Shown here piece by piece: positions 4,347 through 60,460 of a stretch of DNA of 64,000 nt. This stretch comes from Syntrophales bacterium (lineage in GTDB: Bacteria; Desulfobacterota; Syntrophia; Syntrophales; CG2-30-49-12), in NCBI GenBank assembly GCA_041648505.1, contig JBAZOY010000001.1, forward strand, positions 79,540 to 143,539, in the 5' to 3' direction. The first letter of the stretch is position 1. The number at the start of each line of letters is the position of its first letter. A program made the translations under genes and the position numbers. The notes beneath the pieces were generated by a model. The model did not search any database. It worked only from the letters and a program-made list of their open reading frames with translations, and was not told the origin of the DNA.

Positions 4347-4781
4347 TTATTCCGAAACGCTTACTGTCCAGAAGTAAGGCTCGTTGGTCGTGTCATCCGG
4401 TGCGACCCTGGTAAAGGTGACAGTCTTGCCTTTAAAGTCAAATCCAGTAGCGCTCACAATAGAAAGATTGCTGTTCCAGTCTTCTCCCAGTTTTGTATCC
4501 GGCCCGGATACGGTGTCACCATTTCCTGCGGTTAAACTTAAGCCCGGCGCCGGATAGGCGCCGAGGCCATCCTTCAATTTCCACTCCGCGAGTTTCAATC
4601 TTTCCCGGGCACAAAGTTCCGACTTAGCGCCGCCTGACGATTTCTCTATTGCATCCTTGCGCATATCGAGATACTTCGGAATCGCTACCGCCGCCAGAAT
4701 ACCGAGGATAACAAGCACGGCAATAATCTCAATGAGGGTAAAACCTTCTTCATTTTTCATGATCTTTCTTGTTTTAATCAT
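4347..4781 (-). CDS. Type IV pilin (candidate major pilin of the locus)
   Basis: MIKTRKIMKNEEG|FTLIEIIAVLVILGILAAVAIPKYL is a prepilin leader plus conserved N-terminal helix. A GGGAGG RBS lies 7 nt upstream and a sigma-54 promoter lies further upstream. Confidence 0.85.
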   Translation of the reverse strand: MIKTRKIMKNEEGFTLIEIIAVLVILGILAAVAIPKYLDMRKDAIEKSSGGAKSELCARERLKLAEWKLKDGLGAYPAPGLSLTAGNGDTVSGPDTKLGEDWNSNLSIVSATGFDFKGKTVTFTRVAPDDTTNEPYFWTVSVSE

Positions 4782-9317: not shown

Positions 9318-9334
9318 TCTTTTCCGCCCTCTCC

Positions 9335-9370
9335 TTATTCCAATTCTAAATCAAAGCGCTATCTTCGTTG
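9335..9370. repeat. Family B repeat end (partial copy B1)
   Basis: TTATTCCAATTCTAAATCAAAGCGCTATCTTCGTTG is identical to the reverse complement of 46061-46096. It overlaps the last codons and stop of the ExeA-like gene. Confidence 0.8.
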
Positions 9371-15515: not shown

Positions 15516-16065
15516 TCATCCACTTAATATCATGAAAGCTTTGGAAAAGCCTCGCGATATCCTCTCTGGTAAATACTCAGGAGTTATATGTCTTAAGCAG
15601 CTCAATGACTTCTTCAATTTTTGATAATAACTTTAATGTATCGCTATAATCAAGATAATTCGCAAGAAATAAATAATACCGGTATTTTTTAAATACCTTG
15701 TGTTTTATATGGCTTTGTCTTTTTCTTAACTCCTCCGTTTATATTAGCCGGAATAGAAAAGTAGCCTTTCTGATCTGCGAAGTATAATATAAATTTTATT
15801 TCTGAAGAAATTATCATCAAAATGATATATGGATAAAATAAATTATGGTAGTCTGAGACTTTTACAAATTTATTTGCCATTGTCAACAGTAATTTGAGAC
15901 CTTTACAAAACAGTGAAGCCCGTATTAAGAAGAAAAAGATTAAATATCGGTTACCATCCCCCACAGCACCGGCTAAGGCAATATATAAAAGTGTAAGCGC
16001 GTGCATTGACAATTCAGAACCACTTCGGTATTCCAAAGTAAGATATTTTTCTCAGGAATTTTAAG

Positions 16066-18360
16066 ATGATAAAGAGGCTGAAGTCTGTCTTTGTTTTAAG
16101 AGGGTTTTTATTACTGGCAATTTTCACACCGCTTCTCTTTTTACCCCAGGTCTGGGACCTGTACACCCTGCCGAAAGAATGTTTCGTGCGCCTTATCGTC
16201 TCCCTTCTCGTGGTGACCTGGGCCTTCGAAAATATTTCCTCGAAAAAATCGGGCATTTATTTTTCTCCTCTGGGGCTTCCCATCCTCCTCTACACCCTGA
16301 CGCTTTTCCTCTCGCTCATCTACACCATAAATCCCTATACCGGCGCTTATGAAATCTTTCGCCAGCTAACCTGTGTTTTCCTCTTCTTTTTAGTTATAAA
16401 CTACGTGGAAACAGAGAAGGATATCTTAAATATATGCGGAGCAGCCGTTTTAGGCGGCCTGCTGGTTTCAATCCTGGGCATCTTCCAGTACTTCACCTCC
16501 TTTAACCCGGATTGGCTTTACCAGGTAGCCAGGCCTTCTGCTACTTTCGGCAACAAAAACATGGCCGCCGAATACGTCATTATGGTAATCCCCCTCTCTC
16601 TCATTCTTTTCCTTAAGGCCGGGGATGAAAGGCCAAGGCTTTTATGGGCTGTAGCCGCCATTGAAATGATAGCCTATACGGTCTATGCCAATTCCCGGGG
16701 AGCATGGCTGGGCTTAGCCCTTGGCGGATTGATCACACTCTTGATTCAGACAAGAAGGCACAAAGGACAAAAAACAATAATTGAAGTAATAAAAAAAACC
16801 TGTGCTTCTCCGTATCCGCGCTTTCACTTTTCTCCCTGGAGGGCATCGCTTCTGATCTTTCTACTCTCGCTCCATCTTATTTTTCCCTATATCTTACCTA
16901 CGCCCGCAAAGCTTGCTGTCAGTTACCGTGACAAGATGTCTTCAGCGTTAGACCTGAGCAGTGACAGTGCAAGCAGCCGCCTCGCTGTCTGGGCCAATAC
17001 CCTGGAAATGATCAAAGATCATCCTTTTGGAGTTGGAATCAACAACTGGAAGGTGGTTTATCCGGAATATACTCGTTCCCGGATAATAGATAAGGCTGCA
17101 ACCAGCGAAACCCATTTCGAGGAGGCCCACAACGATTACCTCCAGATGATGGCTGAGATAGGGATTGGTGGCTTTGTCTTTTATTTATGGATCCTTACCG
17201 CTATTGTCAGGATGTGCTGGAAGTCACCTGATACTAAATATTCACCTTTTTTCCTCTGGAGCATTGTCGGCTTCATGATCACGTCTCTCTTCAGCTTTCC
17301 TTCAAAGATGCCTGTTACGTCTCTTTTCTTCTGGCTCGCTGCCGGCCTGATTGTTGTGAGAAGCCGAATGATAACCCCGTCAGGAAGATGGCGGATAATG
17401 GAGGGCGGAAAGATATTTAATCTGTCCTTTCTTGGATTCTCGGTTATCTGGTTAATTTCTATGGTCTTTTTATCATATCTGCAGACCTTTTCCAATTACT
17501 ACTTACACCGGGCTAATATCTTGCTGACAGGAGATAGAAATGAAGATGCGATAGCAGCGTACAGCCGATCGGCAGAACTCAATCCTTTCTACTATTGGAC
17601 CTATTTTGGTCGCGCGAAGGCGCAATATCGCCTCAATAACTTTGCCGCATCTATTGAGGATAACCTGCATGCACTCAATTTTTATCCCCACGATATAAAT
17701 GCCCATGGCAACCTTGGCCTCGCCTATGCCGAAAAGGGTCTCTTCGATCTTGCCGGGAAGGAGTACCGGAAGGTTCTGAAACTTTATCCGGAAGACAAGC
17801 GTGCCCTTTACCGGATGAAAGAGCTCGACCAAAAAAGAACCTCTTATCTTGAGGCAAAAACAGCCTGCGAAAAATCACAGGCCTCATCCCCGGACTCGGC
17901 TGAAACTCGCAATTACAGGGGATATTTATGCTTTCTCACCGGATCATACGACGAAGCGATAAGCTGGTATCGTAAAGCTATTGTAATAGACAACCGGTAT
18001 GCACAAGCCCATCATAACCTGGCAAATGCTTACAGTAAGAAGGGACTGATTGATCCGGCCATCGAAGAATATGAGAGGGCAATCAGGATAAATCCTGATC
18101 TCGTGCAGGCTTACATAGATCTGGGTAATGCCTGTAAAGAAAAAGGGCTGTTTAAAACGGCGGTGGAAATGTATCTGGTGGCTCTAAGGCTGAAACCGGA
18201 TGATGCCGATATCCATTTTTCCCTGGGGGAGATATATTTGACCTGCCTGTATGATAAGGAACAGGCCCTTTTCCATTTAAAGAAAACCCTTACTCTCAAC
18301 CCGCAACATCCGAGAGCCGAACAGATAATAGAGGTCATCAAAATTCTTACTCATGATTAA
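16066..18360 (+). CDS. O-antigen ligase (Wzy_C) family membrane protein fused to C-terminal TPR repeats
   Basis: Multi-TM N-terminus with NSRGAWLGLALGG and the ...EEAHNDYLQMMAEIGIGG motif typical of WaaL/PglL/PilO-type ligases. The C-terminal ~280 aa are canonical TPRs (AHGNLGLAYAEKGLFDLAGKEYRKVLKLYPED...). Confidence 0.8.
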   Translation: MIKRLKSVFVLRGFLLLAIFTPLLFLPQVWDLYTLPKECFVRLIVSLLVVTWAFENISSKKSGIYFSPLGLPILLYTLTLFLSLIYTINPYTGAYEIFRQLTCVFLFFLVINYVETEKDILNICGAAVLGGLLVSILGIFQYFTSFNPDWLYQVARPSATFGNKNMAAEYVIMVIPLSLILFLKAGDERPRLLWAVAAIEMIAYTVYANSRGAWLGLALGGLITLLIQTRRHKGQKTIIEVIKKTCASPYPRFHFSPWRASLLIFLLSLHLIFPYILPTPAKLAVSYRDKMSSALDLSSDSASSRLAVWANTLEMIKDHPFGVGINNWKVVYPEYTRSRIIDKAATSETHFEEAHNDYLQMMAEIGIGGFVFYLWILTAIVRMCWKSPDTKYSPFFLWSIVGFMITSLFSFPSKMPVTSLFFWLAAGLIVVRSRMITPSGRWRIMEGGKIFNLSFLGFSVIWLISMVFLSYLQTFSNYYLHRANILLTGDRNEDAIAAYSRSAELNPFYYWTYFGRAKAQYRLNNFAASIEDNLHALNFYPHDINAHGNLGLAYAEKGLFDLAGKEYRKVLKLYPEDKRALYRMKELDQKRTSYLEAKTACEKSQASSPDSAETRNYRGYLCFLTGSYDEAISWYRKAIVIDNRYAQAHHNLANAYSKKGLIDPAIEEYERAIRINPDLVQAYIDLGNACKEKGLFKTAVEMYLVALRLKPDDADIHFSLGEIYLTCLYDKEQALFHLKKTLTLNPQHPRAEQIIEVIKILTHD

Positions 18361-18363
18361 AGA

Positions 18364-18404
18364 GCTTCGAAAATTGTATTCATCGGCGCTCAAAAATCTT
18401 TTTG
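18364..18404. repeat. Family A repeat arm (partial copy A1)
   Basis: CGAAAATTGTATTCATCGGCGCTCAAAAATCTTTTT matches the arms at 24486-24527 and 29030-29068 (reverse complement). Confidence 0.7.
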
Positions 18405-19271: not shown

Positions 19272-19862
19272 TTATTTTATCCTGAACAGGATATCGTCTC
19301 CACCAATTGTAATTGAAGGCCCTGTTTGTCCAAAGACAGTTTCGAGTTCTTTATTAGGCCCGGCGGAAACAACAAACGCAGGCATGAAACCGCTTATATT
19401 AGCAGGCTGCAGACCTTTCACGTCAATGTAATATTTGTCTCCCCATGGGTCTTGCCTGACTCTTTCCAGATAGGGACCGCTCCATTTACTCTTTCCTGAT
19501 GTAGGATAGGCTTGGACATTGGTGACCAGGTGGTCGGCCATATAGTCTATGGAAACCGGAATGGTTACGCCGGTACCAACAGCCGGTGTATCCCCCTCAT
19601 TGCTATGAAGGCCATCATATTTTGTATCAGATGACTGCCTCGCCGTGCCCACTGCCCATACAGGCCAATCTTTCATGTCCTTGTTAAAGGCCAGTACTGC
19701 ATTTGTTATGGTCTGTACGTCCGCCTCTGCCGCAGTTATCTTAGCATCTCCTATAGAGCTGAGCATCATGGGGGTAAGCACCGCCGCCAGGATAGCAACT
19801 ACAGCCAGGATCACAATAATCTCAATCAGGGTAAACCCCTTTTTGTTTTTTAACATCTTCAC
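19272..19862 (-). CDS. GspG-like pilin/pseudopilin, paralog of 18537-19208
   Basis: KKGFTLIEIIVILAVVAILAAVLTP, then GPYLERVRQDPWGDKYYIDV and a C-terminal GGDDILF. A sigma-54 promoter lies upstream. Confidence 0.8.
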   Translation of the reverse strand: MKMLKNKKGFTLIEIIVILAVVAILAAVLTPMMLSSIGDAKITAAEADVQTITNAVLAFNKDMKDWPVWAVGTARQSSDTKYDGLHSNEGDTPAVGTGVTIPVSIDYMADHLVTNVQAYPTSGKSKWSGPYLERVRQDPWGDKYYIDVKGLQPANISGFMPAFVVSAGPNKELETVFGQTGPSITIGGDDILFRIK

Positions 19863-19948
19863 TTTTTTTACCTCCCTTTTTGTTTTAGCCGCAAAGACAA
19901 ATTACTTCGCGACTTTCTCTTTCTGTTTTTCTATTTCATTAGTATCAA

Positions 19949-20284: not shown

Positions 20285-20395
20285 TAATCAGTTAAGTGAT
20301 GGGCTATAGAAAAGAGGCCTTTGCAGCGGGGTGAGACGTGCATGGTCGGAAAAGATTTCTGAGCGTCGATAAATACAAATTTCAAAATTCTCGAG
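20285..20395. repeat. Family A repeat (half copy A2, inverted orientation)
   Basis: The reverse complement reads ...GAAATTTGTATTTATCGACGCTCAGAAATCTTTTCCGACCATGCACGTCTCACCCCGCTGCAAAGGCC..., which aligns to 24486-24560. Confidence 0.7.
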
Positions 20396-24470: not shown

Positions 24471-24681
24471 ACAAAGTTCGAAAGCTTTGAAGATTATATT
24501 CATCGGCGCTCAAAAATCTTTTTCAACCATGCACGTCTCGCTTCGCCGGCAAAGGTACAACTCGCACTTACTTGTTCAGAAAATACCTTTGCCGGCGCTG
24601 AACTGCCTGCAAATGTATGGTGCCCGAAAAATCTTTAATTCGCACCTTCTGAATCAAATTTTCGCTGTTTTACAAAGGTCG
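24471..24681. repeat. Family A repeat, long copy A3 (with nested 14-bp hairpin insertion)
   Basis: Arms ...GAAGATTATATTCATCGGCGCTCAAAAATCTTTTTCAACCATGCA and ATGGTGCCCGAAAAATCTTTAATTCGCACCTTCTGAATCAAATTTTCG. The centre holds CGCCGGCAAAGGTA-26 nt-TACCTTTGCCGGCG. Confidence 0.8.
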
Positions 24682-24685
24682 CTCT

Positions 24686-24740
24686 TATTCCGATTTTAAA
24701 TCAAAGATGAAATCAAGGCGGCGAGGCAGGCGTACATAAA
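24686..24740. repeat. Family B repeat (partial copy B2)
   Basis: TTATTCCGATTTTAAATCAAAGATGAAATCAAGGCGGCGAGGCAGGCGTA aligns with the left part of 45971-46096. Confidence 0.7.
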
Positions 24741-28933: not shown

Positions 28934-29078
28934 GCTGAATTGAAAGACCTTTGCACAATAGCAAAAATTGGATTCAGAAAGCGTGAATTAAAGATTTTTC
29001 CGGCACCATGCCCTTACATTAAAGCGAAACATGCATGGTCAAAAAAGATTTTTGAACGCTTATGAATCCAATTTTCAA
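28934..29078. repeat. Family A repeat, compact full copy A4 (archetype)
   Basis: Terminal inverted repeats AAATTGGATTCAGAAAGC / GCTTATGAATCCAATTT, subterminal AAAGATTTTT motifs and a central ACCATGC...GCATGGT hairpin. Confidence 0.8.
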
Positions 29079-29128
29079 AAGGTCTCTGTCCTTCCTTCCC
29101 GATGCATTAAAGATTTTTGTGCCCCTTC

Positions 29129-32113: not shown

Positions 32114-32473
32114 TCAGAAGCTACGGCCACCCCTTGATCCTCCTCTGCCACCACCACCGGAACCTCCTCTATTACCGCCTTGGCCTCCTCTGCCGCCACC
32201 ACCGTATCCTCCTCTACTACCGCCATTTTCGGTGCGAGGGCGAGCCTCATTCACGTTAAGCGCTCTTCCTTTTAGTTCTTTGCCATTTAGACCATCGATC
32301 GCAGCCTGTCCTTCATCTTTAGATGTCATCTCCACGAATCCAAATCCTTTTGATCGACCACTATACTTGTCTTTTATAATGGTGGCCGATTCAACCTGCC
32401 CAAATTGTTCTGAAGCCAGCCGTAAGTCCTCTTCGGTGACCTCGTACGACAAATTTCCCACATAAATCTTCAT
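32114..32473 (-). CDS. RRM-type RNA-binding protein with glycine/arginine-rich tail
   Basis: MKIYVGNLSY (RNP2), KGFGFVEM (RNP1) and a C-terminal GGSRGGYGGGGRGG tail. The start is set at the internal Met preceded by an AAGGAG RBS. Confidence 0.88.
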   Translation of the reverse strand: MKIYVGNLSYEVTEEDLRLASEQFGQVESATIIKDKYSGRSKGFGFVEMTSKDEGQAAIDGLNGKELKGRALNVNEARPRTENGGSRGGYGGGGRGGQGGNRGGSGGGGRGGSRGGRSF

Positions 32474-32723
32474 TCTAATCTCCTTTTGTAATAAATTATA
32501 AATCTTCACATAACCTAATAACAATTAGGCAGCCTGTATCAACCACAACACGGGAAAAACAGACTTTACCTTCCGTATAAATAAGCTGTACCTTTTGATA
32601 TTCATCACCTAACCATTTGGATTTTATATCACACCTTCTCTCGCTTCACAACTAACCACTTTTTATAAAGCTTGTATTCGACGACTTAAAGTTCGTCTAC
32701 GGGACTGCGTACACCATACCTCC

Positions 32724-33290: not shown

Positions 33291-33614
33291 TGTTACCTCC
33301 TTATGAATGTGGGTTGACCAATTCCGGGACAATAACCTCCGCAACACGTTCAGTAGTTACGCCTCACAATAATTATACAAGTCTGTATAAATCACAGACC
33401 CGGAAAAACAGGCTTTACCCTCCGTATAAACAAGTTTCGACTTTTAATATTATATTTTCCCCACCTATCCGTCCAGCTGAAACTTTTTGCATCCTCGGAT
33501 TGTCTAATATTAACTTTTGGAGTAATATTTGCTAAACTCTCATTGAAAAAGTCTCTCTTAAATTAAAAATGAATCTTTACACGAACAACTAAAAAAATCA
33601 AAAGGAGAATTCAA

Positions 33615-39083: not shown

Positions 39084-39112
39084 ATACCAACTTCAAATCA
39101 AAGATGATTTCT
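39084..39112. repeat. Family B repeat end (partial copy B3)
   Basis: ATACCAACTTCAAATCAAAGATGATTTC resembles the left end of 24686-24740 and 45971-46096. Confidence 0.5.
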
Positions 39113-41495: not shown

Positions 41496-41601
41496 TTTTT
41501 CTACTTAAATTTTTAGAAGTTTAATCTGAAGATTTATAATTAATCCGTAGCTGAAAAATCTCTGCCATCAAATGGTTTACACACCTCACCGTAAACGCTA
41601 T

Positions 41602-45508: not shown

Positions 45509-45799
45509 TCACTCGCTAGCCAGTCTCACCAGGTCTTCGATGGATTCAGGAACCTTGATCAGGTTCTCTTTCCTTGCCTTTGACAGCTTCTTGATTTTGT
45601 TTTCCACTCTGAGTGCGAGACTTCTGCTCCCCAACCTCTTCTCCAGCACCAGGGTCAGAGGGCGCCTACCTCGAAGGTATTTTGACCCGCGGCATCCTTT
45701 TTCCTGGTGCTCTGCAAACCGGCGAGCAACATTAGTTGCAATTCCCGTGTAAAGACTCCCATCGTGGCATCTGATTAAGTACACGTGCCAATTAGACAT
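45509..45799 (-). CDS. GIY-YIG nuclease-family small protein (UPF0213-like)
   Basis: WHVYLIRCHDGSLYTGIATNVARRFAEH. The start is set at the internal Met MSNWHVY. Confidence 0.8.
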   Translation of the reverse strand: MSNWHVYLIRCHDGSLYTGIATNVARRFAEHQEKGCRGSKYLRGRRPLTLVLEKRLGSRSLALRVENKIKKLSKARKENLIKVPESIEDLVRLASE

Positions 45800-45970
45800 A
45801 ATAGAACCCTTCACGTTAGCACTGCCGATTACCGGCACCCCTGCAGAGACCTGGACGTGCCCGATTCGCTCCATGCTAAAACTTCCCGCAAGGGATAGTC
45901 AAGCTGCCGGTTGTAACAGTTCATCTTTTTTGATACTTTTTCGAGAAGATCGGGGGATAGTATACCTGAT

Positions 45971-46096
45971 GCCGGTTTTAAATCAAAGATGAACTCAAGG
46001 CGTCAAGGAGGGGGCGACGCAGGCGTAGATGAAACGTACGTCGAAGAGCCGACGACGATGCCAACGAAGATAGCGCTTTGATTTAGAATTGGAATA
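45971..46096. repeat. Family B repeat, full copy B4 (MITE-like, ~126 bp)
   Basis: Ends GCCGGTTTTAAATCAAAG ... CTTTGATTTAGAATTGGAATAA form terminal inverted repeats. Partial copies lie at 9335-9370, 24686-24740 and 39084-39112. Confidence 0.75.
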
Positions 46097-46283
46097 ACTA
46101 TATCGTTTAAAAATACCCAAACGGATAGGATTACGAACGAATGATTGCTTGAAGAGATTATGTGTTATTTATTGTAGTCAAGATTTTCGGCTGACGCGCC
46201 TGTATAGCAGCTTCCTTTTGGTAATGTGCAAGTGTGATCAAAGAAAAAATGAAGCGTTATTTACATCAATTCCAACATCTTTC

Positions 46284-49193
46284 TCATACCTCCCCCGCTG
46301 TAACAACCACATCAAAGTCCACGGAGAGTTCCTCAAAATGCCTGCGGCCGCACCGGATCTTTTCGGCTTCGGCATTGCGTAGTTTTTCAAAGTCTTTGGT
46401 GCCCTTGGTTTCGCGGACCAGATATAATACCGTGTCGTCATGTTTCAATATTGCCCAGTCGGGGTTGTATTCTCCTATGGGCGTCTCGACCCTAAACCAT
46501 CCCGGCAACTTGACAAAGAGCTTTATGTCTTCCCTCTGGTCGAGTTCCTCCGCAAACTTTCTCTCAATTTCGGAGTCATAAATTACAGCGTCATAGACCG
46601 ATTTCTTTACCTCCAGTCTGTTCGTCAGGTAGCTGATGATTTCCTTGTCCTCGAATAGCCTCATGCTCCATTCCTGATCAGCGATTTTTTCATATTTGAT
46701 GCCATCGATCATCAGCCGGTGCAGTTCCCGTTTAAGAATGCCGACTGCGGCGTCCATGAACCGCTGCGGATTGACGGCGAATTCGGAAAGCCGCCCTGAT
46801 TCGATCAATATTCTGGCAATGGTGGAACGTGTTAGTTCCGTTTCCTTCTGAATGTAGGCGATGATGTCGGGAAGTACGCCAGTAAAGGCGATGTCCGTAA
46901 TCGAACTTCGAATTTCCGTCGTACCGATTCCTTTGTAGGCCGCATCGAGGAGCGCTTCCCGGTAGGAAATGCGGACGGGCTCGACTTTTTCCATCTTCTG
47001 TATGGCCTCAACGGAACGGTTTGCGAGCACCCCCGTAGAATATTCCACAGAATAGGTCGTCTTCGTCTTGATCCGGTTCCAGAGGCTCTCGAAATCCTTA
47101 TCCAGAAAGACCTGCTTGTTGATCCTCAAGGGTCGCTCGTCTTCGTCTTTTTTGATGTGTCTGTCGATTTGATAAGACGCCATGACATCCATGATTTCGT
47201 TCTGTACGTCCTTGAATTCGTCCGGCACGGCAAAGACAAACCCCGGTGCTTTCGGGTTGAAGGCGGGCAGAATCTTTCCATCCTTATCGATATAGCCCTT
47301 TTCTTGAACGGTATTCCAGATCTTCTCGGAGGCATCCCTTCCAAGGGCAGTTTCCTCACCATCTACAACCCGCACGATCCCGGCAAACCCGCCGATGGGG
47401 ATCTTTCCGAAAGTGACCCCACAATCTTCCTCGTATTCCGTCTGGAGCGACCGGGCAAAGTCCTCATAGCTTTCATTGGCCACAACGGTCAGTTTGTTGA
47501 TGTTTTCGTCGAAAACCCGCTCGCCGTCCTGGTTGACGGGTAGCCGCAGTCCCCGACCGATTTCCTGCCGCTTCTTCAGAACGGAAGCCGTCTCGTTGAG
47601 TGTGCATATCTGGAAGACGTTGGGATTGTCCCATCCTTCCCGCAGGGCGGAATGGCTGAAGATGAAGCGGAGCGGTTCGTCAAGAGACAAGAGTTGCTCC
47701 TTGTTTCGCATGATCTTGGTGTAGGTGTCCTCATCCGCCTCAGAGTTCCCCCGCGTATCTTTCAGGACGCCCTTTTTATCCTGTGAGAAGTAGCCGTCAT
47801 GGAGTTTCTCAACCGGATAGGAGAGAAGTCCATGGAAACGAGGCTGGGCAATCAGTTCATTATAGTAATCCTCAAACCATTGGGCAAATTTCCCCTTGGC
47901 AGGTTTGCCCCACTCATCATACGCCCGGTAGTTAGCCACCCGGTCTATAAAAAACAAGGATAGGACTTTAAGCCCCTTGTCTTTAACTTGACACTCCTTT
48001 TCAAGATGCTTCCGGATGGTGTTTCTGATCTGGACTTTCATCAGGTCTTCCCGGATGCCGCCCTGTTCTTCGCCGCGTCGCAGAAAGCGCCCGTTGCTGA
48101 ACCCTACGAATTCATTGCCCGGTTCAGCGCTTATCTCCGAGATGACGTAGCCGTCCCGATAGGCCTCCCGCTCGTTGGAGAGGACGAAAAGATCGGCTCC
48201 CTGTTTCACCTTGACGGTCTTTTCCCGGATGCCGCCCGGTTTGTTTTCATGGATGGCCACTTTTGCGATGATCCCTTTGGTATTGTCCACTTCGACCAGC
48301 TTCGCATACGCGGCATTGAAGGTGTTGGCGCCCTTCGCCTCCGCCACGACAATCTGTTTCACCAGCCGCATCTCGTAGGCCTGGATGGGGTCCAGCTTGT
48401 AAACATGGTTGTAGAGATTCCGGTGTGTCGCCGAATAGCGAAGTGTGCAGAGGGGATTCAGCGTCTTGATGGCCTCCTGAGCCTTGGGCGTATTGTCAAC
48501 GCTTTGAGGTTCGTCGATGATCACAATGGGATTCGTGGCCGTGACGAACTCGATGGGCTGACGGCCTGAAAGCTTGTCGTTCTCCTTGAAGATGACGTTG
48601 CTCTTCTGCTCATCGTCGGTGCCCGTGAAATTCTTGCGGAAGGCGTCGATATTGATGACCATGATTTGAATTGAATTACTCACCGCAAATTGTCGCAGGC
48701 GATTGATCTTCTGAGAGTCGTAAACAAAATACTCATATTCGATATTGTTAAAGAGGGCTTTGAAGTGGTCTTGTGTGATCTCCAGGTTTTTCAGGACGCC
48801 CTCGCGTATCGCCACGCTGGGGACGACGATGACGAATTTCTTGAAGCCGTATTTCCGGCTGAGTTCAAAGATCGTCCTGAGATAGACATACGTCTTACCC
48901 GTTCCCGTTTCCATCTCCACACTGAAGTGAAAGTCCTGTAAAATAGGTATTCGATCAATACCGTGGCGATCCTGAATGGTATTGACATTCGCGAGGAGCG
49001 TTTCATCGTTGATCAGGAGCCGATTCCCCATTCCCAGCTCCGTCTGGACCTGCCCGCTCAACACGCCCTTATAAGAGGTTTCAAAGCGGATTTCAAAATC
49101 CCCCTGGTGCAAGGGCTGACCGTCGAATATGGCCACCACGGCATTGACGGCGTCTATCTGGAATTGTTGCGAGGCGTCGAATTTAAGCTTCAT
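46284..49193 (-). CDS. res: Type III restriction enzyme, Res subunit (SF2 helicase + C-terminal nuclease)
   Basis: METGTGKTYVY (motif I), IIDEPQ (DEAH-like) and ALREGWDNPNV (motif VI), with a C-terminal ...YNPDWAIL...LVRETKG PD-(D/E)xK-like region. It starts 2 nt after mod. Confidence 0.92.
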   Translation of the reverse strand: MKLKFDASQQFQIDAVNAVVAIFDGQPLHQGDFEIRFETSYKGVLSGQVQTELGMGNRLLINDETLLANVNTIQDRHGIDRIPILQDFHFSVEMETGTGKTYVYLRTIFELSRKYGFKKFVIVVPSVAIREGVLKNLEITQDHFKALFNNIEYEYFVYDSQKINRLRQFAVSNSIQIMVINIDAFRKNFTGTDDEQKSNVIFKENDKLSGRQPIEFVTATNPIVIIDEPQSVDNTPKAQEAIKTLNPLCTLRYSATHRNLYNHVYKLDPIQAYEMRLVKQIVVAEAKGANTFNAAYAKLVEVDNTKGIIAKVAIHENKPGGIREKTVKVKQGADLFVLSNEREAYRDGYVISEISAEPGNEFVGFSNGRFLRRGEEQGGIREDLMKVQIRNTIRKHLEKECQVKDKGLKVLSLFFIDRVANYRAYDEWGKPAKGKFAQWFEDYYNELIAQPRFHGLLSYPVEKLHDGYFSQDKKGVLKDTRGNSEADEDTYTKIMRNKEQLLSLDEPLRFIFSHSALREGWDNPNVFQICTLNETASVLKKRQEIGRGLRLPVNQDGERVFDENINKLTVVANESYEDFARSLQTEYEEDCGVTFGKIPIGGFAGIVRVVDGEETALGRDASEKIWNTVQEKGYIDKDGKILPAFNPKAPGFVFAVPDEFKDVQNEIMDVMASYQIDRHIKKDEDERPLRINKQVFLDKDFESLWNRIKTKTTYSVEYSTGVLANRSVEAIQKMEKVEPVRISYREALLDAAYKGIGTTEIRSSITDIAFTGVLPDIIAYIQKETELTRSTIARILIESGRLSEFAVNPQRFMDAAVGILKRELHRLMIDGIKYEKIADQEWSMRLFEDKEIISYLTNRLEVKKSVYDAVIYDSEIERKFAEELDQREDIKLFVKLPGWFRVETPIGEYNPDWAILKHDDTVLYLVRETKGTKDFEKLRNAEAEKIRCGRRHFEELSVDFDVVVTAGEV

Positions 49194-49195
49194 AG

Positions 49196-51184
49196 CTATA
49201 CCGTTCTGAAGGTAATGTTCCGGGTTTTCATGATCTGCACGGCATTGGTCTTGAGCTGGTCGTTGCCTTTGAAGCCTTCGTCCAGGCAGACGACGCGAAC
49301 CGGTTTCATTTCGGCCATCTCTTTGATGACGTCCGGCGTCAAATCCTTTTCCAGACAGATGAGCATGGAACCATCAGCAATAGTGAAAACATCCCTTTCC
49401 GCCAAAACAGTCTTTTCGATTTTCGTGGTCAGGGAGAACCCCGATTTCAGAAGGATTTCGTATAGGATGTTTTCCTGGGAGCTTTGCGGATTGATGTGCT
49501 CGACGAAAAGGGCAATCTGTTTTTTAATGGCTTCTTCATCCTTCGCCACGTCGCCGTCCCAGAGTTTGAAATTAGAAGGCTGGAGCTTGAAGACCTTGAA
49601 ACCAAGATCTGGCTGCGGCTTGGCGGCGGAGAACAGGCCTTTCTTCTTTTCCTGCTCATCTTTGATATTCTTGATAACCCGGCGGATGCGTTCCTTGCCG
49701 ATGTCGGAGATGGTCTTGAATCCGGTTTTGTGGGCTTCGGAATTTTCCTCTGTTGGCTCGGGCAGTTGCACCATAATGAACTTGCGGTTGCCGCCGTCTT
49801 CCTTGTTCAGTTCGAGGACGGCGTGGGCGGTGGTGGCATAGCCAGAAAAAAAATCTAAAACAATATCACCTTCTTTGGTTGCGGTATGCAGGATCTTATT
49901 TATGAAATAGGGTGATTTAGGATAGTCTGGGTTTAAATCATTAAAAAGTCTTTTGAATTCGCGATTAGCAACATCAGTTGAGATATCGCCACCCCACCAA
50001 AAAGATTTTGTCTTCGAAGTCCTCAAGAAATCTTGATCGCCATCATCCGCTTCCTCATCTCCTAAATCAGACATAATGCCTGGCTTTAAATAAACTCTAT
50101 GATCAATATCCCAGCGGCCCTTTTTTTCTGAGTAGCGTGGATGCAAATACTTCAAATTATCTGAGACCTTATCTATTCCCCATCGCCAACGACCATCACT
50201 CCCATCTCCGCGTTTAGGTAAAATTTCTACATCACCATTATTTATACGTTTCAATGAGCAGTACCCTGATTTATGATTAAAAAATATTGAGAAAAACATA
50301 TTAGGCCGGTCTATACGGCGATCTGGCCGTCCTCGTTTCCGTAGGTCTCTTAAAGCAAATCTTTCTCCATTCTCATCTTTATATTTATATTCCTTTAACT
50401 GTTCCTCTGTTAACGGGAGTCCATATGATACAAAATTGCCCCTTGAATAAATAAGCAAATATTCATGACAGGTTGCAACATTTGCTTTATCATTCCTGCC
50501 TTTCATATTGTTAATTACCGTTAGGCTTGCAATGTGGTTCTCCTCGCCAAAAATCTCATTCAGTATACTTCTTAATCCAATAAATTCGTGCTCATCGATC
50601 GAAATAAATATAACCCCATCCTCCCGCAACAGATTCCTTGCCAGAAACAGGCGTGGATATATCATGTTCATCCATTTGGAATGGAATCGACCGTCCGCTT
50701 CCGTGTTCGTGGAGTATTTCCGTCCCTCGTTGTCAATCTGTCCGGTGTAGCGGAGATAGGTGTCCAGACTTTCGCTGTAATCATCAGGATAGATGAAATC
50801 GTTGCCTGTGTTGTAGGGGGGATCGATGTAGATCATCTTGACCTTGCCGAAATAGGACTTCTGAAGGAGCTTCAGGACCTCCAGGTTGTCGCCCTCGATG
50901 AAGAGATTTTCCGTCGTGTCGAAATCTACGGATTCATCGCGGGCGGGCGCCAGGGCAGCGATGCTCGGCTGCTGGATGATCTTGAAGCAGTCGGCCTTCC
51001 CTGGCCAGTTCATCCCGTAGCGTTCCTTTCCCGGATCTACCATTTCTCCAAGGGTCAGCTTGAGCCGTTCAAAGTCAATCTTTTGCCCTTCTGTAAAGGC
51101 CTCAGGAAAGAGGGCTTTGAGCTGTTCCCGTTTTTCCTCAACGATATCAATCGACTTCAGATCCAGCTTTTCAATTTCTGCCAT
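49196..51184 (-). CDS. mod: Type III R-M Mod subunit (N6-adenine DNA methyltransferase, beta class)
   Basis: IYIDPPYNTGNDF (motif IV) precedes VLDFFSGYATTAHA (motif I). The start is set at MAEIEKL with a GGAGGG RBS. The longer listed ORF overlaps abi. Confidence 0.92.
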   Translation of the reverse strand: MAEIEKLDLKSIDIVEEKREQLKALFPEAFTEGQKIDFERLKLTLGEMVDPGKERYGMNWPGKADCFKIIQQPSIAALAPARDESVDFDTTENLFIEGDNLEVLKLLQKSYFGKVKMIYIDPPYNTGNDFIYPDDYSESLDTYLRYTGQIDNEGRKYSTNTEADGRFHSKWMNMIYPRLFLARNLLREDGVIFISIDEHEFIGLRSILNEIFGEENHIASLTVINNMKGRNDKANVATCHEYLLIYSRGNFVSYGLPLTEEQLKEYKYKDENGERFALRDLRKRGRPDRRIDRPNMFFSIFFNHKSGYCSLKRINNGDVEILPKRGDGSDGRWRWGIDKVSDNLKYLHPRYSEKKGRWDIDHRVYLKPGIMSDLGDEEADDGDQDFLRTSKTKSFWWGGDISTDVANREFKRLFNDLNPDYPKSPYFINKILHTATKEGDIVLDFFSGYATTAHAVLELNKEDGGNRKFIMVQLPEPTEENSEAHKTGFKTISDIGKERIRRVIKNIKDEQEKKKGLFSAAKPQPDLGFKVFKLQPSNFKLWDGDVAKDEEAIKKQIALFVEHINPQSSQENILYEILLKSGFSLTTKIEKTVLAERDVFTIADGSMLICLEKDLTPDVIKEMAEMKPVRVVCLDEGFKGNDQLKTNAVQIMKTRNITFRTV

Positions 51185-51215
51185 GAAATAACCCTCCGAA
51201 AGAGGCTGTAAGATA

Positions 51216-52127
51216 TTATGCAACCGGATTATTGTTGTTTTTCCAGATAGGGCAATCCTTCCACTCTTTGGGGAAGCCCATCGGCGCCAAGGGAATATTG
51301 GAATAATCCTCAAGCAGCTTTTCCACCCGATTCGGCCAACGGCTCAACGGCGCTACGTAAGCAATGAGATAGCGAAGCAAGGTTAATACCGCAAAAAGCC
51401 TTTCATTTCTTACTTCGACCGGGGTGTGCCATTCAGGATGCTTGTTGCGCCTTGGAATAGCCGGCTTTATGCCGAGAGCCCGGTTCCATAAGCGGCCATG
51501 ATGAGCGCAAATATTACGTACCTGGTTGAGGCAATGGAGCCAGGAATCCAGGACTTCAGCCGATATTCCGTATACGGCTGCAACATTGCGCCTGATTTCG
51601 GACTCCGTTCCCCGAAATAAAGTGAAAAGCATTCCAAAAGTCATGAGTTCCACGGCCATCCATAACGGCAAGTCGGTTTCCTTTCTGTACTTTTGCCGGT
51701 AGTGCTCAACAAACCGTTCCTGGCTGTGGATGGCTTCCTCGCAGATTTTATGAATCATCTCAATCCTTTTATCATTATTAATTTTTGGAAGATTGGCAGG
51801 ATTGAGATGTCCAAAGGCCCCGTATTTCAAGGTGAAGGTATTGGTCAACTGCGTCCGGACAGCTATCTCTACCCGCTCAATGGCGTCCATGACCAGCAGC
51901 CTCATTTGGCGGTCGAATGTGTACCGCCGCCAGATCATTTCAAAAGTGGTACCTGGCTTTAAAGTGTCATCATCTTGGCGGAAAGGATACCAATAGGCGC
52001 TGAGACGGTAATAACTGACGTTGCTCAGATGAATGAGAAGTGTTTTCTTGTCTGTAACTACCAGACCACGGTTGATTAGGAGGTCGGCCTGCTGATCGAA
52101 AGTGAGAGACGATTTGGTATATTTCAT
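51216..52127 (-). CDS. Abi_2 (AbiD/AbiF-like) abortive-infection family protein
   Basis: MKYTKSSLTFDQQADLLINRGLVV...HLSNVSYYRLSAYWYPF and ...VRNICAHHGRLWNR are characteristic of the Abi_2 family. It lies 31 nt upstream of mod on the same strand. Confidence 0.8.
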   Translation of the reverse strand: MKYTKSSLTFDQQADLLINRGLVVTDKKTLLIHLSNVSYYRLSAYWYPFRQDDDTLKPGTTFEMIWRRYTFDRQMRLLVMDAIERVEIAVRTQLTNTFTLKYGAFGHLNPANLPKINNDKRIEMIHKICEEAIHSQERFVEHYRQKYRKETDLPLWMAVELMTFGMLFTLFRGTESEIRRNVAAVYGISAEVLDSWLHCLNQVRNICAHHGRLWNRALGIKPAIPRRNKHPEWHTPVEVRNERLFAVLTLLRYLIAYVAPLSRWPNRVEKLLEDYSNIPLAPMGFPKEWKDCPIWKNNNNPVA

Positions 52128-58308: not shown

Positions 58309-60315
58309 ATGTTACCGATTGCAGGTAAGATAGTTCTCATATTGTTAATAGTTGTTACCGTTGTTGCTTTTAGTAAGAGAGCAAAATTCCTTATTGCCCT
58401 TATTAAACAGGGACAACCGGAAGACAGATCTGACAAGGCCGGTGAGCGTTTGAAATTCTTTCTCGGTCAGGTACTGCCCCAGCGTTGCGTCCTTAAGCAA
58501 GTTACAAAAGGTGACTATGCCGGCATAGGACACATGCTCTTATTCTATGGGTTTTCTCTTTTCCTTCTCAGTTACGGTGTTCATATTGCGGAAGGACTTT
58601 ACGAACCATTATCACCCGCCCTTTTAGGAAGAACCGTTAATAACCTGTTTTTTCTCCTTCTCGATATTGCCGGTCTGGTCGTTATTGCAATGATCATCTG
58701 GGCGGCGATCAGGCGTTATATCGTCAGGCCTGCGCGTCTGAAGCCATCCATGGAAGCAGGAATCATTTTGATTGTGGTTTTTTCTTTAATGCTTCTGAGC
58801 TTTTGCACAGAAGCATTTCGCCTTCTTGCAGAAGGCAGTAATCCCTTTGCCGAGTGGTCTTTTGTAGGCATAGCCCTGGCAAATCTCTTCGCGGACATGG
58901 GTTTACAGGACAAGGCACATATGCTCTACATGATTTTCTGGTGGGTGCATATGATTCTTATCCTGGGCTTTGGCATTTACATTCTCTACTCCAAACATCT
59001 TCATATTCTTACTTCTCACTTCAATCTCTATTTTCATTCCACGGGTCCCAAAGGCTCTCTTCAGCCGATAACGGATATGGAAGAGGCGGAAACTTTTGGA
59101 GTCTCGAAGATTACTGAATTTTCATGGAAACAGCTCCTCGATTTGTACGCCTGCACAGAGTGCGGACGTTGTACTGAAAACTGTCCCGCCAGTAACAGCG
59201 GAAAACATTTAAAACCGGAAGAACTTATTAAGCACCTTAAGGTACACCTCTTTGCCTCGTCGGCAAAGTTGCTCGCGGAAAAGGAAGAAGGGCAAGAAAA
59301 GGAAGAAGGACAGGCCCTTATTGGTGATGTGGTGAACGAGGAAGAGATATGGGACTGCACAAATTGCATGGCCTGTATGGAGATATGCCCGGTAGCAATT
59401 GAACATATCAACAAAATTGATGATATGCGGCGCTACCTGGTTTTGATGGAGAGTAAATTCCCGGCAGCGCTGCAGACTGCATTTAGAAATATGGAAAATA
59501 ACTCTAATCCCTGGGGCATAGGTGCCCATACGAGGGGTGATTGGGCCAAAGAACTGGGTATCAAGACCCTGGCGGAAGATCCAAACGTGGAATACCTGTT
59601 CTATGTAGGTTGTTCCGGATCGTTTGATGACAGGGGCAAGAAGGTAACAGTAGCCTTTGCTAAGATCCTTCAGGCGGCTGGTATCAGCTTTGGTATCCTT
59701 GGAGAAGAAGAGGGGTGCTGTGGCGATTCGGCCATGAGGGGCGGCAATGAGTATCTCTACCAGATAATCGCCCAGGGAAATGTTGAGATAATGAACGGTT
59801 ATAATGTTAAGAAAATTGTTGCCATCTGCCCCCACGGATATAATGTTATAAAGAAGGATTATCCCTTTTTCGGCGGCAATTACGAAGTCTATCACCATAC
59901 CGAAATTATTGCCGATCTGATTGCCAAAGGTAAGATCAAATTGAGCAAGTCTCTGGAGGGGGTATTTACCTACCACGATTCCTGTTTCCTTGGCAGGTAC
60001 AATAATATCTATGATCAGCCAAGAAAAATTTTAAAGTCTGTTCCTGGTTTAAAACTGACGGAGATGGAGCGAAACCATGCGAGGAGCTTCTGCTGCGGTG
60101 CCGGTGGTGCCAGAATGTGGATGGAAGAAGATGTCGGCGAGAGGATCAACAATATGAGGACCGATCAGGCTATTGCGGCCAAAGCAGATACAATTGCCGT
60201 GGCCTGTCCTTTCTGCCTCACCATGTTGACTGACGGGATCAAGGACCGTGAAAAGGAAGAAAGCATGAACTCTCTCGATATTTCTGAAATAGTGTTGAAG
60301 GCCATGGATATTTAA
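58309..60315 (+). CDS. Membrane-bound FeS oxidoreductase (N-terminal ~6-TM domain + 2x[4Fe-4S] + CCG-domain, HdrD/DsrK-like)
   Basis: Hydrophobic N-terminal ~240 aa, then CTECGRCTENCP and CTNCMACMEICP ferredoxin motifs and two C-terminal cysteine-rich CCG-type regions (VGCS..., CCGAGG). Confidence 0.85.
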   Translation: MLPIAGKIVLILLIVVTVVAFSKRAKFLIALIKQGQPEDRSDKAGERLKFFLGQVLPQRCVLKQVTKGDYAGIGHMLLFYGFSLFLLSYGVHIAEGLYEPLSPALLGRTVNNLFFLLLDIAGLVVIAMIIWAAIRRYIVRPARLKPSMEAGIILIVVFSLMLLSFCTEAFRLLAEGSNPFAEWSFVGIALANLFADMGLQDKAHMLYMIFWWVHMILILGFGIYILYSKHLHILTSHFNLYFHSTGPKGSLQPITDMEEAETFGVSKITEFSWKQLLDLYACTECGRCTENCPASNSGKHLKPEELIKHLKVHLFASSAKLLAEKEEGQEKEEGQALIGDVVNEEEIWDCTNCMACMEICPVAIEHINKIDDMRRYLVLMESKFPAALQTAFRNMENNSNPWGIGAHTRGDWAKELGIKTLAEDPNVEYLFYVGCSGSFDDRGKKVTVAFAKILQAAGISFGILGEEEGCCGDSAMRGGNEYLYQIIAQGNVEIMNGYNVKKIVAICPHGYNVIKKDYPFFGGNYEVYHHTEIIADLIAKGKIKLSKSLEGVFTYHDSCFLGRYNNIYDQPRKILKSVPGLKLTEMERNHARSFCCGAGGARMWMEEDVGERINNMRTDQAIAAKADTIAVACPFCLTMLTDGIKDREKEESMNSLDISEIVLKAMDI

Positions 60316-60460
60316 AGTATTGGATTCAGAAGGGGCGTGAATTAAAACTCTCGCACACCATGTATACCGTCGCAATGAAGCGTTGGTATGCATGGTGTGC
60401 TTTTTTATGGTCTAAAAAATATTTTCAGCGGGCTTATGAATACAATTTCCAAAGCTCTCG
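60316..60460. repeat. Family A repeat, full copy A6
   Basis: GTATTGGATTCAGAAGGGGCGTGAATTAAAA...GCACACCATG...CATGGTGTGC...GCTTATGAATACAATTTCCAAAGCTCTC is colinear with 28934-29078. Confidence 0.8.
60353..60406 (+). terminator. Intrinsic terminator (central hairpin of repeat A6)
   Basis: GCACACCATG-28 nt-CATGGTGTGC-TTTTTT, a perfect 10-bp stem. Confidence 0.75.

Follow-up and report, generated by a model that had tools for sequence, protein, structure and literature searches.

A dispersed palindromic repeat with a conserved hairpin in intergenic regions of a Syntrophales bacterium

A 64-kb stretch of a Syntrophales bacterium contig (hereafter the window; 46% GC) was found to carry a dispersed intergenic repeat, which we call Family A, as three full copies, a right half, a right arm, a degenerate left half and a 25-nt scrap. 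The canonical unit of about 200 nt folds as a single long, imperfect hairpin whose apical stem-loop varies, and further members occur on unrelated contigs. In our preferred reading, to which we give a probability of about one half, Family A belongs to the broad class of palindromic intergenic repeats that includes the ERIC, Correia, BOX and MITE elements, is old and non-autonomous, and is co-transcribed as a hairpin.

Family A copies in the window

An earlier note, made from the letters of the window, had described a repeated intergenic element centred on a copy at about 28.9–29.1 kb. Profile searches with nhmmer, together with BLAST and a repeat finder, bore out a dispersed multi-copy family, with nhmmer E values down to 2.5e-49, and a 28-nt degenerate pattern of the Family A core occurred four times in the window against 0.00 expected from shuffles. 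The box AAAGATTTTT was present seven times against 0.75 expected, and six of the seven occurrences lay in or beside Family A copies. The ends of the element were set where similarity between copies stops, at GAGAsCTTTG on the left and CAAAGCTCTC on the right, which moves them about 10 nt outwards from the coordinates first given.

The strongest match was a full long form of 205 nt at 24480-24684 on the minus strand (E 2.5e-49), located between convergent slipin and MOSC genes and colinear with copies on three other contigs (L003, L004 and L011). The earlier note had rightly called this copy full but had read an insertion into it; the supposed insertion belongs to the canonical long form, which is shared with copies in other genomes. 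Of three open reading frames that had been read as mere translations of the element, the one checked, at 24487-24699, falls in this copy. The copy that had been taken as the archetype corresponds to a 143-nt element at 28944-29086 on the plus strand (E 6.5e-28), between convergent methylmalonyl-CoA mutase and polA genes. It is present and folds as a single long hairpin (-47.7 kcal/mol, z -6.7), but it is a short form, a deletion derivative without the central hairpin, and not the archetype. Directly after it, on the same strand, lies a 25-nt scrap at 29098-29122 that resembles a left-arm box (GCATTAAAGATTTTTGTGCC) and contains AAAGATTTTT at 29109-29118; an extra submotif had been noticed there. 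A third, divergent full copy of 147 nt was found at 60313-60459 on the plus strand (E 4.5e-22), between convergent Hdr-like and phosphoglycerate mutase genes, where a full copy had been placed near 60316-60460.

The partial copies that had been reported were recovered with one exception. The half near 20285-20395 is a right half at 20316-20392 (plus strand, E 8e-17) that begins at the right arm of the central hairpin, and the arm near 18364-18404 is a right arm of 43 nt at 18361-18403 (minus strand, E 8.6e-10). A piece that had been placed at about 15853-15960 proved to be a genuine degenerate left half plus centre, but with a true span of 15896-16017 on the plus strand: narrower profiles matched it at E ~5e-5, the broader nhmmer profile had no match at this position, and its local alignment score of 29 compares with 11.3±1.7 (maximum 18) for shuffles. 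The exception was a piece suggested at about 41545-41580, for which nhmmer gave no match at E≤20 and the alignment score of 18 was within the range of shuffled sequence.

NCBI protein accessions on both sides of each window copy are consecutive, thus no protein-coding gene is annotated at the Family A spacers. Family A is non-coding: 1-nt indels shift its frame between copies, and stop codons interrupt it in the 29-kb and 60.3-kb window copies and in L004.

A second, unrelated palindromic repeat, Family B, was also present in the window as a full unit of about 132 nt at 45966-46097, with arms TTCCRRTTYTAAATCAAAG and CTTTGATTTAGAATTGGAA, and as solo arms at 9334-9370, 24684-24726 and 39084-39107; positions 9335-9370 and 46062-46097 are complementary at 36 of 36 nucleotides. 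The arm at 24684-24726 directly abuts the 24-kb Family A copy. Termini shared between Family A and Family B were considered and rejected, as the similarity was at chance level (score 10, shuffles 9.9±1.5). The full Family B palindrome sits in a defence-type cluster at 45509-52127, between the gene for a small GIY-YIG protein (45509-45874) and the Type III restriction enzyme gene res (46284-49193), which are followed by genes for a DNA methylase (49196-51313) and an Abi_2 protein (51216-52127). Other repeats in the window included a 72-nt direct repeat (32531-32602 and 33380-33451; 78% identical, 849 nt apart) in a region of small glycine-rich or Gly-zipper genes, with tandem CCTCCTCTGCCRCCACCACC repeats nearby at 32115-32224, and an 89-nt repeat (4687-4775 and 19780-19868; 72% identical). 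The last was rejected as a mobile repeat because it corresponds to paralogous coding sequence, namely the N-terminal prepilin (N_methyl) segments of two pseudopilin genes.

Members on other contigs

We identified nine further members of Family A on unrelated metagenome or MAG contigs (L003, L004, L011-L016 and L020), from hosts with a GC content of 39-64%. Two of these, L003 and L004, were the only true members among six loci returned by a metagenome pattern scan, the other four (L002 and L005-L007) being chance matches to the AT-rich core. As gene callers often translate such repeats, protein databases were searched with a profile of the single open frame of Family A; this recovered 19 pseudo-protein clusters among 1.84 billion representative proteins, and the corresponding contigs yielded the remaining seven members. 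The neighbouring genes are unrelated from contig to contig and include an aldehyde dehydrogenase, a multihaem cytochrome, a Kch channel, an opp-like ABC operon and DsrC/ClpB. A separate observation concerns the 1.7-kb metagenome contig of L014, which carries a full-length MISL RNA at 537-1294 (RF03079, 574 bits, E 9e-175) about 290 nt from the Family A copy at 50-248.

The earlier note had allowed that the copies might be confined to this region as a local duplication; members on unrelated contigs with unrelated neighbours show that they are not. Chance similarity or a purely local segmental duplication could appeal to the low-complexity A/T boxes and to nothing else, and is refuted by E values to 1e-49, by the core count of 4 versus 0 expected and by the occurrence of members in other samples; we give it practically no credence. 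Family A is instead dispersed and fairly rare. Exact-pattern scans of 185,579 species-representative genomes gave no match, a result that says little about the true distribution because the source MAG is outside that collection and the patterns are too strict for divergent members of the L020 type. BLAST searches of plasmids and phages gave no Family A match, and scans of viral contigs gave no member; the one 21-nt match (L028 3334-3354, GGTCGAAAAATATTTTTGAGCCGATG in a spacer of a viral contig of 60% GC) covered only the core box of 21-26 nt and is probably due to chance.

Structure and conservation of the hairpin

Units range from 138 to 249 nt across copies, and the alignments place the 24-kb window copy, L003, L004, L011, L014-L016 and L020 in the long form of about 200 nt. 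The 24-kb copy consists, from the outside inwards, of an outer stem, a 10-nt one-sided bulge, a AAAATTKGATTCA/TGAATNNAATYTT stem and the AAAGATTTTT boxes, then an ACCATRC/GCATGGT stem and a central GGCAAAGGTA/TACCTTTGCC hairpin. Written as RNA, the order for the family is the outer stem, the 10-nt one-sided bulge, a AAAAUUGGAUUCA/UGAAUCCAAUUUU stem and a GCGC stem, followed by an AAAGRUUUUUCG/CGAAAAAGAUUU stem and an ACCAUGC(CGUC)/(GACG)GCAUGGU stem, and then by a purine-rich internal loop (GCAGCGAAGCG, on both strands), a GCAAAGGCAA/UUGCCUUUGC stem and, at the apex, a short capped stem between UGAG and CGAG. The 29-kb copy and L012 have an identical central deletion junction and on this ground form a short-form subfamily; the central hairpin of L013 is longer. 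Terminal inverted repeats of about 18 bp had been described for the element. The ends are indeed inverted repeats (GAGAsCTTTG and CAAAGCTCTC), but this description is too simple, as the whole unit is inverted and forms one hairpin; the outermost stem differs in sequence in L015, L016 and L020.

Over eight long copies, 93% of the cells in 54 predicted pairs can pair, and 20 of the 54 pairs exhibit double-sided (compensatory) changes, compared with 7.3±2.0 in column shuffles (none of 500 reached the observed value) and 1-10 in slid controls. The hairpin is kept by compensatory change, although in inverted repeats DNA-level processes can produce such change too. L015 and L020 have an outer stem of wholly different sequence in which pairing is retained. 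The inner core is nearly invariant, AT-rich boxes included, even in hosts of 63-64% GC. Compared across genomes, conservation is lowest in the outermost stem and highest in the inner core, a gradient opposite to that expected of terminal inverted repeats bound by a transposase; a functional core fits this pattern better than transposase-bound ends do.

This pattern of conservation bears on an alternative reading, which we consider possible but unlikely, that Family A comprises structured non-coding RNA genes or modules of about 200 nt, read from the plus strand, with a core that binds protein or nucleic acid and with paralogues and pseudogenes as the dispersed copies. On such a reading the outer stem need only pair, like the closing helix of riboswitches or ribozymes, and high conservation of the core in hosts of 39-64% GC alongside covarying outer and apical stems is what would be expected. 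The apical stem covaries as GCGC/GCGC, GUGC/GCAC and CGCC/GGUG when read from the alignment, and the one-sided bulges and internal loops are conserved and have not been "corrected" to a perfect palindrome. Unpaired positions on the plus strand are 64% purine, in both halves, and the conserved UGAG...CGAG could form tandem G.A pairs beside the short apical stem, which is closed by GUGA, GUAA or AAA loops. Folding energy was lower on the plus strand in seven of nine copies, with one tie and one reversal, and RNAalifold slightly preferred the plus-strand consensus (-51.95 versus -48.57 kcal/mol). Against these points, counts of G.U versus A.C pairs in consensus folds of both strands separated the strands in neither direction, and the compensatory changes could have arisen in DNA by quasi-palindrome template switching or if both transposase sites changed in parallel. 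Family A is not bracketed by any conserved promoter or terminator, the sequences flanking one copy are unrelated to those flanking another, truncation to a half or an arm is frequent, and the family is rare, with only the 19 pseudo-ORF relatives recovered from the protein databases. Neighbouring genes are heterogeneous, which argues that Family A is not a gene-specific cis-regulator.

Three further observations were set aside. What looks like G.U-rich pairing between the two AAAGATTTTT boxes is lost once they are placed in the consensus register, in which UUUUUCG is paired with CGAAAAA. All co-directional loci have the element in minus orientation relative to the genes; this was rejected as evidence because the loci had been found via a pseudo-ORF on that strand and the sample is biased accordingly. 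A sigma-54 or sigma-70 promoter inside Family A was likewise rejected, as the spacing is wrong and the one weak match, at 9 of 12 positions, lies beside the 29-kb copy.

The inverted conservation gradient and the purine-rich conserved loops would also suit a structured, possibly mobile class of RNA. Modelled in this way, Family A might be an undescribed structured RNA class of about 200 nt, a rod whose conserved core is a purine-rich internal loop and which may have a tandem G.A motif below its capped apical stem; such an RNA would either move through genomes as an RNA-dependent mobile element or provide a protein from another locus with a scaffold or guide. We regard this as doubtful; if it were true, the hairpin-forming "repeat" copies would be the genomic footprint of that class.

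Gain, loss and age of copies

The most direct evidence for mobility of the preferred palindromic repeat came from an opp-like operon. In L020 a Family A element occupies a 331-bp spacer between the third substrate-binding-protein gene and a permease gene. Six relatives whose binding protein belongs to the same 90%-identity cluster (L021-L026) have a 58-bp spacer and no element at this place. In five of them, L021-L025, a left-half fragment is present one gene further upstream, at a place where L020 has only 21 bp; L026 begins too near its contig end to show this second site. The fragment, at 2380-2460 in L021 and the same in L022-L025, is a degenerate left half between the second and third substrate-binding-protein genes. 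Close relatives differ in Family A occupancy, which indicates gain and loss at intergenic sites, and the L020 and L021 spacers are too diverged to define the ends of an insertion. Other candidate empty sites were not clean. The methylmalonyl-CoA mutase of the window has its nearest relatives from other genomes at about 83% identity, and three orthologous mutase loci (L008-L010, ~78-80% identity) lack the element but differ in synteny; L027, a relative via the C-terminus of phosphoglycerate mutase, has a 20-bp spacer and a different neighbouring gene.

Flush direct repeats flank two of eight copies, GTGGTC (6 bp) at L003 and GAAAA (5 bp) at L013, and in L011 a direct repeat AATCA is offset from the element ends; among mismatched-flank controls, 1 of 56 reaches 5 nt. 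The search for target-site duplications that had been proposed thus gave flush repeats of 5-6 bp at these two copies but none at the flanks of the window copies, and flanking repeats are weaker support for mobility than occupancy in the opp-like operon. No transposase, RAYT or recombinase was detected among the approximately 50 window ORFs compared with Pfam, and no autonomous parent was found. This agrees with the remark in the earlier note that no transposase accompanies the copies, and the cognate RAYT gene that it had suggested looking for is absent from these ORFs.

Pairwise identity among the window copies is 60-77%, and the 24-kb copy is nearer to L004 (81%) than to its own genome-mates. 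Copies in one genome are no more alike than copies from different genomes, which argues against a recent burst of Family A. Judged by its sequence divergence, Family A is old in this genome, where halves, arms and scraps are common.

Differences in occupancy between close relatives would also be expected if Family A were a hairpin or cruciform site acting at the DNA level and recognised in single- or double-stranded form, such as a site of recombination or integration, a place where a nucleoid-associated protein binds or the target of another mobile element. Both strands fold about equally well, and AAAGATTTTT boxes occur on each arm, with another next to the 29-kb copy. In L003 a gene fragment at 653-976 that encodes 107 amino acids of a tyrosine recombinase (Phage_int_SAM_4, E 5e-14) stops 29 nt short of the Family A copy. 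That the element interrupts the integrase gene was rejected, since the ORF stops by itself before the element, and this integrase fragment is a single case. The sequence of the Family A ends differs from integron attC sites in having no attC-type core (GTTRRRY/RYYYAAC), the neighbours are housekeeping genes and not cassette arrays, and the window has no recombinase. We consider a DNA-level site improbable, slightly more so than an undescribed RNA class.

Position relative to genes and possible 3′-end role

Every full copy in the window has at least one flanking gene whose stop codon is 0-45 nt away, and on this basis copies of the preferred repeat are probably co-transcribed with the flanking genes. 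On the MOSC side the 24-kb copy is separated from the gene by about 80 nt, with a Family B arm in between. The 60.3-kb copy fills its entire spacer, its left end overlapping the TAA stop codon of the upstream gene, and the 18.4-kb right arm abuts the stop codon of a TPR/O-antigen-ligase gene. The location mostly at gene 3′ ends proposed in the earlier note is accurate for the three full copies, all of which are between convergent genes, but not for two of the fragments, which are just upstream of gene starts: the 20.3-kb right half ends 12 nt before the coaBC start codon and the 15.9-kb fragment precedes a gene starting at 16066.

The main stem of Family A is bracketed by GAAAAUUGG and CCAAUUUUC. 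Symmetry of an A-tract and a U-tract is a feature of bidirectional terminators. In the canonical form the stem adjoining UUUUC is AU-rich, and a simple terminator pattern scan flagged none of the 24-kb, 29-kb and 60.3-kb copies. In the 60.3-kb copy an extra TGTGCTTTTTTATGG creates a 20-bp hairpin (60353-60400; -35.2 kcal/mol, z -7.5) that is followed by U6, and it is this copy only that has the predicted shape of a canonical terminator, for the upstream gene.

A mechanism consistent with the preferred reading can be outlined. A factor supplied in trans would move Family A copies, and inserted copies would decay into halves and arms. Copies near gene ends would be transcribed with the flanking genes, and the RNA hairpin between the A- and U-tracts may then act as a 3′-end structure, whether as an exonuclease barrier, as a site of partial or bidirectional termination or as a processing site. 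The 60.3-kb copy would, in addition, have gained a canonical terminator hairpin and U6.

Comparison with known repeats

In architecture and function Family A appears, by analogy, closest to hairpin repeats of the ERIC or Correia type. ERIC/IRU elements of Enterobacteriaceae and Vibrio are imperfect palindromes of about 127 bp in intergenic, transcribed spacers, with size variants due to internal indels. Like Family A they are non-coding and intergenic, form one long imperfect hairpin, vary in size, lie near gene ends and are conserved across species, and no transposase is known for them. In contrast, Family A has no sequence relation to ERIC/IRU, is about 200 nt long, has a separate apical stem-loop and is found in another host lineage, namely Syntrophales and further metagenomic bacteria of anaerobe-like character. 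Correia elements (NEMIS/CREE) of Neisseria have 26-bp terminal inverted repeats and a TA target duplication, and roles in termination and RNase III processing have been reported for them. They share with Family A a MITE-like hairpin, long and short forms that arise by internal deletion, a position beside genes and co-transcription (probable in the case of Family A), whereas Family A has no TA duplication at its flanks and its outer ends are its least conserved part.

The earlier note had labelled the element MITE/REP-like. REPs are 20-40 nt long, with a conserved 5′ tetranucleotide and a RAYT gene nearby, and act between binding-protein and permease genes in enterobacterial ABC operons (e.g. 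the malE-malF REP). Family A resembles REP/BIME sequences as an extragenic palindrome near 3′ ends, and the L020 element lies between substrate-binding-protein and permease genes; unlike them, it is 140-250 nt long, has no GTAG-type head, and no Y1_Tnp domain was found among the approximately 50 window ORFs. The REP-like part of the label does not hold, given the size of the unit and the lack of a RAYT gene among these ORFs, but MITE-type mobility has some support from the filled and empty site and from the flush repeats at two of eight copies. Family A is similar to IS-derived MITEs in being small, non-coding and multi-copy, with inverted ends, polymorphic occupancy and some flanking direct repeats. 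It differs from them in that no cognate IS was found, the duplication length is inconsistent (5 and 6 bp), the conservation gradient is inverted, and the copies are old and divergent.

The impression that the element matches no described family also stood. A search of Rfam 15 gave no hit in the window at the gathering score and only irrelevant sub-threshold hits, at E≤10 for the 24-kb copy and at E≤1 for five other copies, and a literature search found no relevant description. Family A is an uncatalogued repeat from uncultured syntrophic or anaerobic lineages, with no Rfam entry and no description in the literature searched.

Palindromic repeats between genes influence how mRNAs end, the polarity of operons and the rearrangement of genomes, and to our knowledge nearly all descriptions of them concern cultured Proteobacteria and Firmicutes. 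Gene callers misannotate Family A as "hypothetical proteins", as seen in the 19 pseudo-protein clusters in public databases. A Family A model would remove such spurious ORFs and mark likely 3′-end structures in these MAGs. With an invariant core and a covarying outer stem in hosts of 39-64% GC, Family A offers a test case for distinguishing a mobilising enzyme from RNA-level function and from the dynamics of DNA palindromes.
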